A stretch of DNA of 44,786 nucleotides from a phage. Below the pieces are notes generated by a model, which made no database searches, was not told where the DNA came from, and saw only the letters and a program-made list of their open reading frames with translations. Below, piece after piece: positions 1,499 through 39,420 of the stretch. The stretch is from NCBI GenBank assembly GCA_012646845.1, contig GCA_012646845.1_4707.2. The stretch is one strand, 5' to 3'. Positions within the stretch are counted from its first letter, which is position 1, and each line of letters begins with the position of its first letter. The translations under genes and the position numbers were made by a program.

Positions 1499-1547
1499 GA
1501 AGCCCCTCCCCCCGGCGGAAGCCGGAGGGAGGGGTGAGGTTTATGCG
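1499..1547 (+). terminator. GC-rich hairpin (CCCCTCCCCCCGG/CCGGAGGGAGGGG) followed by TTTATGC
   Basis: Inverted repeat 1503-1534 then TGAGGTTTATGCGCG; member of recurrent hairpin family. Confidence 0.5.
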
Positions 1548-2026
1548 CGTTCGTTGCCAACCGTTACTTTGTAGTCAGCGTCGGTTAAGAAAATAGACAG
1601 GAATCCATGTTCTTTGCAAATCTGACTAAGGATGTCAGCAATGATTTCGTTGATCATCGGTTTGTTTGCAAGGGCATAGATGTACCCGGGTGTAAAAGAA
1701 AGTGCGTGATTGATCATAGGCTCATGAGAAGCCAAGATAAGGATCACGTGATGCTTCCCATCGTCGGTAATGACCGCTTGCGTAGACACGAAGAAATCAG
1801 TGAAGCAGCAGCGATCACAGGCTTTAGGTATATACAAATCACCCAGAGCTTCGTCGCGTGCTTTTATGTGTGTTTCAGGGGTGATGCTGCTAAGTTGATC
1901 TTCAGCGAGATCCAAGACATCCTCAATCGTTTTAAGAATAGCGTTGCGGAAATCCTCGCGGTAGAATGGGATGATATCACGATCGTTCATGTAATCGCCG
2001 GATTCGATAGTAAAGTTGATGTTCAT
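1541..2026 (-). CDS. hypothetical protein (161 aa)
   Basis: ORF track; acidic protein-like composition; overlaps less convincing plus-strand ORF. Confidence 0.55.
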   Translation of the reverse strand: MNINFTIESGDYMNDRDIIPFYREDFRNAILKTIEDVLDLAEDQLSSITPETHIKARDEALGDLYIPKACDRCCFTDFFVSTQAVITDDGKHHVILILASHEPMINHALSFTPGYIYALANKPMINEIIADILSQICKEHGFLSIFLTDADYKVTVGNERA

Positions 2027-2136
2027 TGAATGCTCCTAGTGGTTATGTCGATTGATTGACGTGTTAATTTATGTTTGATGAGGTATACTTGAAACTACAA
2101 ATAAGGCTCTCGGCGTTGCTGTTATGGTTCAGTTCT

Positions 2137-2586
2137 TTATCCCTTGTTGGATTCGTCAATATACTTGGTGTCGTAAGACAAATGCTGAATTAATTTTCTA
2201 GGTCTGATGAATATACGACATGTGATAAACACATCAGGATCGTATTGTTCCACGCAACGTCCGAAGGCTCGTTTTGCGGACTGACGCATCAGGGTTAATT
2301 CCTGATCGTTCATCTCATCATCAAATTCGATGTGTATCGTGATTTTATCGGGAAATAAATAGATAGAGTAATCGCTACCAATACCGCCGTCGTCAAAGCG
2401 ATAATCGTTGTGGCAATGGTGGAGTTTACCTTCGTGTATCGTCTGGTACCACCCGACGATACTATCAAGACCCATACCCAGGTGTCCGAATGCTTGGTTA
2501 ATAATATCCTCGACGACGGATGCGGGCGTGGGACCATGGAATAGACGATCTAAGCGCTTTTTCATTGATTTGGTTTTCTCGTTCAT
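2137..2586 (-). CDS. hypothetical protein (149 aa)
   Basis: ORF track; co-oriented with neighbours. Confidence 0.6.
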   Translation of the reverse strand: MNEKTKSMKKRLDRLFHGPTPASVVEDIINQAFGHLGMGLDSIVGWYQTIHEGKLHHCHNDYRFDDGGIGSDYSIYLFPDKITIHIEFDDEMNDQELTLMRQSAKRAFGRCVEQYDPDVFITCRIFIRPRKLIQHLSYDTKYIDESNKG

Positions 2587-2608
2587 GATTTTTTTCCTGT
2601 TATAATCG

Positions 2609-2657
2609 GCATACAGCCCTTCCCCGGCCTTGACGGCTAGGGAAGGGGCTATGCTAC
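2609..2657 (-). terminator. GCATA-flanked GC-rich hairpin (family member)
   Basis: GCATACAGCCCTTCCCC ... GGGAAGGGGCTATGC inverted repeat immediately after stop of 2662..3060. Confidence 0.45.
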
Positions 2658-2661
2658 GTTG

Positions 2662-35946: not shown

Positions 35947-35958
35947 AGTACCACCCCA

Positions 35959-36279
35959 TCAACGTCTTACTTTAAGCGGTATCTTGTTTCGGAAACAATA
36001 ACACCGGATGGCGTGTACGCTACGATTCATTATTTCAGCAATTTCTTTTAGGGTATGTTTCTTTGCAAGCATAGCAATCCTAACCCTTTCTTCTGGTGTG
36101 TAAACTCCCCCACGAGGAGGTAGGTCACCTCGTCGTTTCCTCAACTTGAGGTAACGCGCGCGAATAGAACACGGCGTCCGATCCATACAACGCGCTATTT
36201 CTTTATAGCTCGCTTTTGGTGATGTGCTAAGAATAAGCAGCAGCGCTTCATCCTCTTTATCCGTCCAACGTTTACCCAT
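35959..36279 (-). CDS. HTH-repeat protein, array member A (two modules)
   Basis: WTDKEDEALLLIL...SYKEIARCMDRTPCSI; TLKEIAEIMNRSVHAI. Confidence 0.7.
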   Translation of the reverse strand: MGKRWTDKEDEALLLILSTSPKASYKEIARCMDRTPCSIRARYLKLRKRRGDLPPRGGVYTPEERVRIAMLAKKHTLKEIAEIMNRSVHAIRCYCFRNKIPLKVRR

Positions 36280-37018
36280 TTTTCTTACCTTTAGCTTCGA
36301 ATAAATTCACGATGTTACTTTTATTGGTGAACGTAAACAAACAATCCGTACACGTGTTTGAGTCGTAATAAAAGACCTTTTGTACGCTATGCCCGTATCC
36401 GAGTTCTACCAATTTTATATTTCCGATGTTAGCACACATCTCTGGAAACAAGTAGACAAAGCGGTTATTACGTGCGATACTCGATACCAAGCCAAGCGCG
36501 TGTTGATGCTCAGCGCGATCATCTTCGCTAGAGATGGTATAATTGCTTGTACCGGTACATATTTCGGACAATACGGTATCCAGCTGTTGCAATAACTCTT
36601 GCAGGAATCGATGATCGTGGTATAACGTACGGCCATTTTGGTAAATCGCGTATTCCAACCCATAAAGCTCACCAAATTGTTCCCTCAATAGGCTGGCTGC
36701 AATATCGTCTGAATCACGTAACGAATTAATCAGTGCGGGTAAATACCCAGCCATTAATAAATTCACATGTTCTGATCTAGACGGCATCCGACAAATTACA
36801 CAATTAACGAACTGTCCGAGGTTATTAAGCTCGTCAGGATCCGTGTATAGGTCAGCGCATAGTTGCTTGGTAATAGGATCGTCAACCGATAAACCGCCGT
36901 TAATAAAGAGCTGATAACAATAATACATTAAATCGTTTATCGTCACTCTAGCCAACAGCGGGTTGTGTTGTATTCGATTATCTATCGTCATTCTTTCTAT
37001 TCTCCTTAACTTTATCAA
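36272..37018 (-). CDS. hypothetical protein (248 aa)
   Basis: ORF track; start overlaps ligase 3' end, true start may be internal Met. Confidence 0.55.
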
Positions 37019-39053
37019 TCATCGAAATCAGCAGGTTGATACTTTCTTCTTCGTTATCTGTCGCATCACAGTCTCGGATAACGGGAATCCCCAACGCTTC
37101 AGCTTTCGCGTGTTTACTGCCGGGGTTACTGCCACAGACAAGAACCGTTGTGTTTTTACTTACACCGCTTGTGATTGTGGCCCCCATGGTCGCTAAACGT
37201 GTAGCAAGCTGATTTCTATCGATATCGTTGAAACTTCCCGTGATAACGATACGTGTATCTAATAACGGTAACTGATTCATATCGCGTTCCTTAACTGGAG
37301 CTGGCGTTACACCGACATCGTACAACAGATCGAAGATATATCCACGATTTGCTTTATCGTAGATGTACGTTAGGATCTGATCCGCTGTAATCTCACCGAT
37401 GCCTTCAACGGCAAGCAAGCTTTCTTTATCGGCAGCTAAAAAGCTATCCACCGTCTTAAATGCGCTAGCAAGATCACGTGCCGTGCTTTTACCTACTGTA
37501 AGAATCCCTAACCCGTAGATGAAACGTGCTAGCGTGGTCTCCCTGGATTTCTGGATAGCATCGATAACCTTGAAGGCGCTATAATCCGTAAACCCATCCA
37601 GTTGGCTAACCTGCTCACGAGTTAACAGATAGAGATCAACCGCAGATTGCACCAACCCACAGTTGTAGACCTGTTCCAAGAACCGTTCGCCGACACCTTC
37701 GATGTCCATGACGTCACGACTTACCCAATGAATAAGACGCGCTACCGCTTGGTCAGGACAAGTTCCGGTTGCAGGACAACGCCAACGCGCTTCATTTTCC
37801 TTTTTCGTTAATGTCGTCCCGCAGGTTGGGCAATGGGTTGGAAAAATGATTTCTTTTCTTTCCTCGCCGGGACGCACACTCACGATTTGAGGAATGACGT
37901 CACCAGCACGACGAATAACAACATAATCACCAACGCACACACCTAACCGATTTATTTCGGCTTCGTTGTGCAACGTGATGTTGCTTATCGTTGTACCCCC
38001 AACGAACACCGGTTCAACGCGAGCCACGGGTGTGATGCTTCCTGTTCGACCAACCTGAAAATCAACATCGAGTAGCCGGGTGGCTTTTTCCTGCGCAGGG
38101 AATTTCCATGCCCGTGCCCAGCGTGGCGCACGAGACGTTGCGCCGAGCTTCTCCTGCATCGCAACATCATTCAGTTTTATTACCATGCCGTCAATATCAA
38201 ACAAGCGCTTCTCACGCCATGTAAGCATATCACGATACACCACAATCAACTCTTCTGTCCCCGTGGCGATATACGATTCGTTATATAGACCTAATCCCAA
38301 CGCGGCAACAAACCCCATTTTTGATCCCTGCGTCGCAAACGTGTAGGTGTCCTCACCATCCACGAAAACATCGTAGGGACAGAACAACAAACGACGTTTT
38401 GCAACGGTTTGCGGATCCAAACGTCGTAACGTCCCTGATGCTGCGTTACGTGGATTTACGTACGGTTTTTCATTGTTCGCAACGAGTTCTGCGTTCAAGA
38501 GTTCAAAGGCGTAGTGTGGCATCAACACTTCACCACGAACTTCGATTTTCTGTGGCGTTGATTCCCCCATTTTCAATTGTGGAAAGACACCCATTACCGT
38601 ACGGATATTCGACGTAACATCTTCACCCTGAACACCGTCCCCACGAGTTACCGCACGTTGCAACAAACCATCCTCGTAATGAATCGCGATCGCTAACCCA
38701 TCGTATTTGGGTTCGATCAAGTATTCGAGCGTGTCTTCTGCTACCCCTAAGGTTTTTGCGATGGACTCCGTCCAATTCCGCAACTCTTCTTCACTGAACA
38801 GGTTATCCAAAGACATCATCGGAGACGGATGCTTCACGGTCTCAAAACCGTCAACCGGCGTACCTACACGACGGGTTGGGCTGTTAGGTGAAACCTGATC
38901 AGGATGCTGCGCTTCATATTCCCGAATCGTTTTCACCAGGCTATCGTATTCTTCATCGGTGTATTTCGGTTCCGCTTTAACATGGTAATAGTAATCAGCT
39001 TCAAGGATCGTATCAATAAGTTTCAGGTAGTCTGCTACTGTTGTGATTTTCAT
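36978..39053 (-). CDS. ligA: NAD-dependent DNA ligase
   Basis: KxDG adenylation motif ([16 protein letters not shown]); Cys4 Zn finger (CPTCGTT...CPATGTCPD); C-terminal BRCT-like domain (IVITGSF...[25 protein letters not shown]). Confidence 0.92.
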
Positions 39054-39334
39054 TTACGTTTACCTTTGTTTCTCTGACGTTCTTCTCGACGAGCGAGTGC
39101 TTCACGACGACGTTTCTGTCGAACTTCTTCGGGTAACCGACGTTCGAACCAAAACAGCGGCCAGAAAATCGACCCGAGGGCGATAAAAGGGAATGCTCCC
39201 ATCATCGCAACGCAATGTGCTGGAAGCGTGTAGGTTGGGGATTTAATACCGTGCTTATGTAACCCGATGGTCACTGTAACTATTTCGATTAGCCAGCCAG
39301 ATAAATACAGGCAGCCGAGCATCTGTAGAATCAT
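39050..39334 (-). CDS. small membrane protein with basic C-terminal tail
   Basis: Start at ATG 39334 (GGAGGA RBS); two hydrophobic helices then [30 protein letters not shown]; stop overlaps ligase start. Confidence 0.55.
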
Positions 39335-39383
39335 GTTGTCGTTTCCTCCATACGAAACCAAAAAATTGTCAAAATGTACATCA

Positions 39384-39420
39384 GCATAACGCCCGTGCCC
39401 GCCCGCGATGGGAGGGACAC
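39384..39420 (-). terminator. GCATAA-flanked imperfect GC hairpin (family member)
   Basis: GCATAACGCCCGTGCCCGCCC ... GGGAGGGACAC after stop of 39442..40074. Confidence 0.3.

Follow-up and report, generated by a model that had tools for sequence, protein, structure and literature searches.

Intergenic hairpins with a conserved TTATGCYG tail in a Goslar-like jumbo phage are probable transcription terminators of the phiKZ kind

The 44,786-nucleotide (nt) stretch of phage DNA analyzed here (contig GCA_012646845.1_4707.2 of GenBank assembly GCA_012646845.1, hereafter the window) carries GC-rich hairpins between its genes. An earlier note, made from the sequence alone, listed ten of them as a family flanked by GCATAAA/TTTATGC and oriented with the genes, and suggested a phage-specific terminator, an RNA processing or stability element, or a protein-binding site. 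What are these elements, and why is their flank more conserved than a generic terminator needs? The results described below indicate that they are very probably factor-independent transcription terminators of the kind known from phiKZ-like jumbo phages (Chimalliviridae).

The whole window aligned by Megablast to Escherichia phage vB_EcoM_Goslar (Goslar), with an overall identity of about 93%. Positions 1-25000 correspond approximately to 81.7-108.6 kb of the Goslar genome (93.6% identity) and positions 25001-44786 to 108.6-129.9 kb (92.9% identity). Goslar, a 237-kb nucleus-forming jumbo phage of E. coli (Goslarvirus), encodes phiKZ-like multisubunit RNA polymerases (RNAPs). Genes for such polymerases are present: the product of the open reading frame (ORF) 7284-8585 (minus strand) shares 32% identity with the phiKZ virion RNAP subunit gp80 and is also homologous to the annotated RNAP beta subunits of some 300 related phages (chimalliviruses), and further beta/beta' homologues are found in the Goslar annotation. 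Goslarvirus proteins are only about 30% identical to those of phiKZ. The complete Goslar genome, with 247 annotated genes, was used for all genome-wide counts.

Nearly all window genes are carried by the minus strand. A stable stem-loop was found at each of the ten noted sites, with whole-site RNAfold energies of -16 to -42 kcal/mol on the gene-sense strand. The core hairpins, including that of a probable eleventh member, range from -15 to -33 kcal/mol, and the earlier observation of hairpins at the ten sites was confirmed. The elements, with their tails read in the direction of the gene unless stated otherwise, are as follows.

1481..1548, both strands: putative bidirectional terminator of convergent transcription units, hairpin 1503-1534; plus-strand tail GTTTATGCG at 1539-1547, minus-strand tail CTTCGCATGCG plus a T-run at 1502-1481; -32.8 (minus) and -31.8 (plus) kcal/mol; ends gene 1541-2026 (minus) and, on the plus side, comes after an intron-like RNA and the open frame 1198-1455; kept in Goslar with one A/G change and pairing intact.
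2607..2656, minus strand: putative terminator, core hairpin 2617-2647, the stem extended over 2609-2654 by GCATA/TATGC pairing; sense tail TGTATGCCG at 2615-2607, mirrored GCTATGC on the plus strand; -28.1 kcal/mol; 7 nt past the stop of ORF 2662-3060; core 100% identical over 29 nt to two other putative Goslar terminators.
5947..5994, minus strand: putative terminator, hairpin 5957-5994; tail TTTTATGCTG at 5956-5947; -27.4 (sense) versus -20.4 (antisense) kcal/mol; 8 nt past the stop of gene 6003-6404.
6449..6504, minus strand: putative terminator, core hairpin 6460-6491; sense tail CTTTATGCCG at 6459-6450, mirrored TTTATGACC on the plus strand; identical in Goslar; member of repeat family D6.
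12638..12689, both strands: putative bidirectional terminator between convergent genes 12069-12629 (plus) and 12682-14196 (minus), hairpin 12645-12677; minus-strand tail TTATGCTA at 12645-12638, plus-strand tail TTTTTATGCCG at 12679-12689; -25.1 and -23.3 kcal/mol; hairpin sequence replaced relative to Goslar, with architecture and tail retained.
19456..19522, minus strand: putative terminator, long interrupted hairpin 19464-19522; tail TTATGGCG at 19463-19456; whole site -42 kcal/mol, core -30.4 (sense) versus -23.4 (antisense); 3 nt past the stop of gene 19528-20031.
26867..26907, minus strand: putative terminator, core hairpin 26876-26900; tail TTTATGCCG at 26875-26867, weak mirrored TGTATGG on the plus strand; -17.1 to -18.8 (sense) versus -10.4 to -12.1 (antisense) kcal/mol; two A/G differences from Goslar, A-U to G.U, with pairing in the sense RNA only; 14 nt past the stop of gene 26915-27412.
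28311..28353, minus strand: probable eleventh member, absent from the earlier list, hairpin 28330-28353; tail CTTTATGTTG at 28320-28311 after a longer spacer; conserved in Goslar; 18 nt past the stop of gene 28372-28581.
29436..29465, minus strand: putative terminator, hairpin 29443-29465; variant tail TTTATACCG, with A for G, at 29444-29436; -15.9 kcal/mol; 2 nt past the stop of gene 29468-29785.
33387..33415, minus strand: putative terminator, hairpin 33395-33415 of 7-9 base pairs; tail TTTATGCTG at 33395-33387; -15.2 kcal/mol; 4 nt past the preceding stop; closest match in the window to the phiKZ consensus.
39382..39426, minus strand: putative terminator, hairpin 39390-39426; tail TTATGCTG at 39389-39382; -32.4 kcal/mol including outer pairs; identical in Goslar; 15 nt past the stop of gene 39442-40050.

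The gene-direction tails are of the TTATG type and begin 0-3 nt behind the hairpin at the ten noted sites, with a TATG core at ten of the eleven sites and TATA at the remaining one. Eight of the nine minus-strand sites begin 2-18 nt after a stop codon, which agrees with the earlier observation that they lie just behind genes. The flank itself had to be redefined. Only six of the ten sites carry an exact GCATAAA/TTTATGC heptamer, and as a word on its own it was rejected, since 12 copies were found in the window where 7.7 were expected. What is constant is a longer tail, TTATGCYG(TT). A catalogue of hairpins followed by TATG in Goslar and the window contained 78 elements (76 without duplicates), and the logo built from 65 of them gave, after the G-rich arm, the consensus TT-TATG-C-Y-G-T-T with frequencies T(65%) TATG C(62%) Y(82%) G(60%) T(54%). 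In 60 of these 65, stem and TATG are 0-3 nt apart. Of the 266 TATG in the window, 20 (7.5%) follow a strong hairpin within 5 nt, whereas the proportion is 1.3-3.7% for eleven other tetramers matched in composition. Among the words of the arms, CCTCCC, GGAGGG and GGGAGG are enriched about 19-fold in Goslar intergenic DNA, and TTTATG and TTATGC are enriched 5- to 6-fold. Both features of the phiKZ type were found, a C-rich 5' arm with a G-rich 3' arm and a TTAT tail continued by K-Y-Y-G-T. A minority of elements have other GC-rich stems, and their tail is unchanged. Elements were collected by anchoring on TATG and by analyzing each intergenic region, for which Lfold (windows of 56-70 nt) was set aside; its tail extraction failed because the mirrored GCATAA/TTATGC flanks pair and absorb the tail into the stem. 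A polar-arm hairpin finder missed the first and fifth sites of the list because the inner stems there are not polar.

If the elements terminate transcription, where should they lie? The intergenic regions of the complete Goslar genome answer this question. In tandem regions the sense strand has 18 copies of the string TATGC[CT]G and the antisense strand one; there are five more in convergent regions and one in the 20 divergent ones. At strong intergenic hairpins, TATG lies 3' of the loop at 36 of 58 in sense and at 14 of 58 in antisense, and the extended tail is present at 22 of 58 in sense and at none of 58 in antisense. A TATG follows the loop on 25 of 32 strands of strong hairpins in convergent regions and on none of 12 in divergent regions. 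The elements are found downstream of genes in the direction of transcription and have tails on both strands where genes converge. The tail thus goes together closely with the hairpin, is oriented with the transcription that reaches it, and does not occur in places expected to hold promoters alone. Of the elements with hairpins at or below -20 kcal/mol, 50 of 54 are outside gene interiors, so that the motif is not equally common within coding regions. Orientation does track gene direction, as had been claimed, through the tail and through G.U pairs. The polarity of the C-rich and G-rich arms is no marker because the reverse complement has the same polarity. The motif is not described in the Goslar genome paper, which cites a generic predictor, or in the GenBank record, which lists about 25 generic predicted terminators.

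The tetranucleotide in the tail raises another reading, in which a terminator is fused to a restart site and the non-virion RNAP initiates the next mRNA at the tail G. The late promoter of phiKZ is 5'-TATG-3', with the G as the start, and all four bases are needed in vitro (PMC4666361, PMC12809450). Each tail in the family has TATG or TATA and faces the downstream gene in tandem arrays, and the tail TATG equals the phiKZ late-promoter consensus. Moreover, one phiKZ late start, P049 (94330), is located 5 nt past a hairpin tail, at a second TATG, and terminator and promoter signals may occasionally overlap. Nevertheless, we regard a promoter role for the tail as quite unlikely. Between convergent genes, where only antisense RNA would result, tails stand on both strands, while the divergent regions, where promoters must be, have none at strong hairpins and a single TATGCYG. 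No fixed distance separates the tail from the following start codon (-21 to 118 nt at the window sites). The eight phiKZ start sites that neighbor a mapped terminator on the same strand are all 20-59 nt downstream of the 3' end and never at the tail G. The known late promoters (Ceyssens 2014; Yakunina 2015; de Martin Garrido 2024-2026) share the tetranucleotide with the tail, but no CYG follows it there, and in most of those in phiKZ, P119L among them, no hairpin precedes it. Finally, the site at 5947..5994 is followed, about 35 nt downstream, by a separate early-promoter-like motif, TTTCACGGCTATATTAC, with TATATTAC at 5911.

A terminator of this type would act as RNA, and the two strands of the hairpins differ as expected from a structure formed in RNA. 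Of 35 tandem elements, 29 have the more stable hairpin on the sense strand and 6 on its complement, with a mean difference of 3.1 kcal/mol (Wilcoxon p = 3.5e-6). As the stability of the sense strand comes from G.U pairs, it is as RNA that the structure acts. Where the window and Goslar differ, which is seldom, the changes are found in loops, or are A/G changes opposite U in which pairing is kept only in the sense RNA. One subfamily has copies at 13 Goslar loci, and in its stem six of nine positions switch between C-G and U-A, with one mismatch in 117 cells. These pairs were counted with a regular expression, as MAFFT placed those of the 13 paralogous copies that have 5-nt loops out of register. 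A search for distant relatives suited to orthologous covariation returned only contigs 98-99% identical in IMG/VR and only Goslar itself among GenBank phages.

These observations also bear on the possibility that the elements are palindromic DNA repeats, similar to repetitive extragenic palindromic (REP) or PeSL sequences, which spread by recombination or serve as a protein-binding or cruciform site and are found behind genes only because insertions are tolerated there. In its favor are the near-identical subfamilies (13 Goslar loci of one type, and exact or near-exact matches of 29-36 nt between distant sites), the mirrored GCATAA...TTATGC flanks, and the fact that, of the three larger differences that set the window apart from Goslar, two adjoin a hairpin, one hairpin having been exchanged for another subfamily. 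However, a palindrome recognized as DNA is expected to be equal on both strands, whereas here the sense strand is favored 29:6 through G.U pairs; tail orientation tracks transcription 18:1; and the stems co-vary with pairing kept. Recombination at repeated terminators fits terminator function as a secondary consequence. Taken together, an origin purely as DNA repeats is extremely improbable.

The exchanges themselves are informative about gene movement. Three window cassettes are absent from Goslar (12682-14388, 2662-3615 and 18641-19475, compared with Goslar 93429-93493, 84335-84423 and 97746-97922), and the corresponding window-only ORFs are 12682-14196 (DUF7941 and DUF285 domains), the paralogous pair 2662-3060 and 3096-3491, and 18747-19475. 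The 1.7-kb cassette with ORF 12682-14196 is bordered exactly by a conserved ...AACAGCATA flank on one side and, on the other, by a hairpin belonging to another subfamily, and the extra ORFs 2662-3491 start beside the hairpin 2609-2654. Two of the three cassette junctions are exactly at a putative terminator hairpin or its GCATA flank. This suggests that recombination at repeated terminators moves gene cassettes as a by-product of terminator function. T4-type phages reportedly possess PeSL cassettes, described by Arbiol and co-workers in 2010, in which repeats of an early promoter and a stem-loop drive modular gene shuffling. The present elements are comparable in that repeated regulatory stem-loops stand at gene boundaries, cassette differences adjoin hairpins, and an early-promoter-like motif comes after the stem-loop at 5829-6002. 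They differ in that the sequence is unrelated, the order and composition are not the same, and the recombination role in the window comes from two junctions only.

Is a terminator with this anatomy known? Long-read transcriptomics of phiKZ mapped 133 termination sites, and a common motif, 5'-BCCYCCCCHWWDGGGRRGGBYTTATKYYGT-3', in which TTAT stands behind a stem-loop, was found in 61 predicted intrinsic terminators (Putzeys et al. 2024, microLife, PMC10914365). Motif A of phage 201phi2-1 is closely similar (n=59), and several of these terminators stopped read-through in a two-reporter assay in Pseudomonas (PMC11512511). Judged by its sequence, the tail TTATGCYGT of the window and Goslar is the phiKZ terminator motif. 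In all these phages a C-rich 5' arm, a short loop, a G-rich 3' arm and a spacer of 1-3 nt are followed by TTAT-G/T-Y-Y-G-T; the elements are intergenic, stand behind genes and are bidirectional between convergent genes; and the genomes encode phiKZ-type virion and non-virion RNAPs. The Goslar-type elements are different in that they belong to another lineage with an E. coli host, have a nearly fixed G after TTAT where phiKZ has G or T, are arranged in repeated subfamilies, and often have much longer stems, which reach about 18 pairs and contain an inner CCC/GGG helix. A known class of terminators, that of phiKZ and 201phi2-1, is extended to Goslar-type phages of E. coli.

To locate the ends within the tail, the mapped phiKZ 3' ends were placed again on the phiKZ genome. 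Positions and strands were taken only from the preprint tables, the text of which had dropped characters and some shifted rows, and the bases were read again from the genome; the statistics cover start sites to P066 and 3' ends to T076, about the first 146-168 kb. Among 30 mapped ends with a nearby TAT[GA], 11 were at TAT|G/A, 7 at +2 (TATGC|), 6 at +3, 2 at +4, 3 at -2 and 1 at -5. The terminal nucleotide is almost always a pyrimidine and the next one often a G. The TATA variant seen at window site 29436..29465 is also present at the mapped ends T006, T023, T050 and T064. The positions of the 3' ends mean that the conserved tail is the release zone.

A 3' end may also be made after transcription, and the elements could be 3'-end protectors or sites for an RNase, an RNA-binding protein or an export factor of the phage nucleus, with the conserved tail as the place of cleavage or binding. 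The strand-specific G.U pairing, which shows that the structure matters in RNA, is compatible with this, as is a tail conservation (C, Y and G at +4 to +6) that exceeds what a weak hybrid needs. Furthermore, 3'-end mapping by Oxford Nanopore (ONT) sequencing alone does not separate termination from processing, and in chimalliviruses, which have genes for RNA-binding proteins such as ChmC, mRNA has to leave the phage nucleus. On the other hand, ends at TAT|G would leave the conserved GCYG outside the mature RNA, the 201phi2-1 equivalents stopped transcription between reporters in uninfected Pseudomonas without phage factors (PMC11512511), and ChmC binds near start codons, with no binding motif found for it. 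We consider a purely post-transcriptional origin highly unlikely. RNA processing or stability, or protein binding, which the earlier note had also offered, may be added roles but are not needed for the explanation; its first proposal, a phage-specific terminator with a flank beyond generic need, agrees with the sense placement, the doubling between convergent genes, the absence from divergent regions, the G.U asymmetry and the match to the phiKZ motif.

The tail was then compared in 23-41 kb samples of other phage genomes. The same tail after hairpins with quite different stems was found in phiKZ, Erwinia phage PhiEaH1 (for example ...CAGGAGAGGG ctTTATGCTGc) and Ralstonia phage RSF1 (for example ...GGTAGTCTG cgTTTATGCCGt). 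The Bacillus phage AR9 sample showed AT-rich hairpins. With canonical bacterial intrinsic terminators the elements share a GC-rich hairpin, a weak rU:dA-rich hybrid and release a few nt past the stem. In contrast, they lack a U-tract of 7-9 nt and have instead UU(U)AU followed by a conserved G-C-Y-G, and bacterial terminators have no counterpart to the sequence conservation of the tail. Their tails have 2-4 T before the AT, fewer than the 5 or so U that a canonical terminator needs within 8 nt of the stem. Accordingly, a canonical terminator scan reported only 12649-12672 and, in part, 1498-1514 among the family sites (2 of 11). A search of the window against Rfam returned no match at the gathering score for the hairpins; its only match at that level, IS009 at 20119-20317, is unrelated to them. 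Canonical T-run terminators without a TATG tail form a second, smaller class alongside the TTATG class, at 5360-5377 and 24547-24578 (minus) in the window and at 86155-86172, about 108100 and about 165450 in Goslar.

Several points weigh against identification of the elements as terminators. Most of them fail the canonical intrinsic-terminator scan because their T-run is too short. A mirrored antisense TATG accompanies 11 of 48 tandem elements, about a quarter, and simple one-way termination needs no mirror. ONT 3'-end positions are uncertain by a few nt, and a terminal A is inseparable from the added tail. Salmonella phage SPFM3, which is SPN3US-like and a member of the same virus group, has T-runs after its intergenic hairpins in the 41 kb sampled; therefore the tail is not universal in the family, and the tail type may differ between chimallivirus lineages. 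As the subfamilies are near-identical, part of the conservation may reflect spread by recombination and not selection on each base. Lastly, we infer termination at the window and Goslar sites from homology of motif and context. Even with these points considered, a terminator function is very probable.

How would such a terminator work? The enzyme that stops could be the virion, the non-virion or the host polymerase, the phage's own multisubunit RNAP being the most likely. As the C-rich and then the G-rich arm are transcribed, the nascent RNA would form a very stable hairpin, and a short, weak, U/A-rich hybrid (UUAU) would replace the long bacterial U-tract. Release would occur inside the tail, 4-9 nt past the stem and for the most part at two pyrimidine|G steps, TAU|G and GCY|G, with Y|G presumably the position of pausing or release. 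Elements between convergent genes, having a tail on each strand, would stop transcription from both sides, and the promoter of the next gene would be a separate element further downstream. The preference for Y|G is similar to the Y(-1)G(+1) rule for elemental pauses of bacterial RNA polymerase, which was reportedly established in 2014 by Larson and co-workers and by Vvedenskaya and co-workers. The tail may in addition be read in a sequence-specific manner. The commonest phiKZ 3' end, TAU|G, has the same four bases in the same register as the late promoter, with G at +1. By analogy, the polymerase pocket that reads TATG at late promoters might also read it at termination, a tentative idea that we hold to be rather doubtful at present. 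Such a pocket would catch TATG in the elongation bubble and cause a pause once the hairpin has emerged, leading to termination with only a UUAU hybrid, and a second stop at a pyrimidine|G step would be provided by the conserved CY|G.

Other features of the window touch these elements or their neighbors. Some annotated start codons coincide with the ATG of a putative terminator tail, at 33387-33395 in the window (the homologue of Goslar_00111) and at 49772, 152272 and 166924 in Goslar. The string GGGAGGG-TTT-ATG mimics a Shine-Dalgarno sequence with a start codon. For window gene 32721-33392, a better-spaced site, AAAGGAAACAAAATG, is present 7 codons downstream, and this mimicry may have produced very short Goslar ORFs such as Goslar_00167 (31 amino acids) as artefacts. 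The tail ATG as a true start codon, with the G-rich arm as its Shine-Dalgarno sequence, was also tried and rejected: most such ATGs begin frames of just 4-17 codons, and neither the distance nor the frame relative to the next gene is constant.

A duplicated module has TTTCACGGCTATATTAC on the minus strand, at 5911 within 5896-5934 and at 29866 within 29851-29889. The motif is followed by a small hairpin and a conserved leader and ribosome-binding stretch, and the duplication also includes 5825-5858 and 29782-29815. The motif TATATTAC, with an A/T-rich upstream part, occurs about nine times in Goslar intergenic DNA and is the core of the phiKZ early (virion-RNAP) promoters in the published table. 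From their sequence, the TTTCACGGCTATATTAC modules are likely early promoters. A strong hairpin at 26515-26551 (minus, -23 kcal/mol, GGTTCTTCTCTTCC...GGGGAAGAACC) has neither a T-rich nor a TATG tail. It is directly upstream of the ribosome-binding site of gene 26000-26500, is conserved at Goslar 110086-110156, and may be a structure of the 5' untranslated region rather than a terminator.

Upstream of the first element, a group I intron-like RNA at 711-1177 (plus) scored 38.7 bits (E = 3e-8), under the Rfam gathering score of 50. It is located directly behind a NUMOD1/HNH homing-endonuclease ORF (1-723, plus). The Goslar gene upstream of this region encodes a DNA polymerase B exonuclease domain, the 0.8-kb stretch is unannotated in the Goslar record, and the open frame 1198-1455 (plus) may be the downstream exon. 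The distal tail-fibre and tail-fibre-assembly genes at 20076-21300 (minus) share 85-88% DNA identity with side-tail-fibre modules of E. coli phages, lambda-like ones among them. The module at this locus is another one in Goslar, and the IS009 match (173.8 bits) is inside the borrowed assembly gene.

The finding has consequences for the annotation of these genomes and for the biology of the family. About 50 elements can be placed on a Goslar-type genome, as compared with the roughly 25 generic terminators of its GenBank record, which gives a first map of transcription units for the E. coli model of nucleus-forming phages and flags start codons that were probably mis-called. The elements also offer compact, strong, bidirectional terminators for engineering. 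That the same 8-nt tail follows unrelated stems, in phages with proteins about 30% identical, argues for recognition by conserved machinery beyond a weak hybrid. The phiKZ 3' ends, mapped again in the TATG register of the late promoter, provide a testable hypothesis on non-canonical multisubunit RNA polymerases. If the same pocket did read TATG at both steps, it would join the context-dependence of the TATG promoter with termination by polymerases that have no sigma factor, and would explain why the tail is found in chimalliviruses of Pseudomonas, Erwinia, Ralstonia and E. coli and not in those with T-runs.

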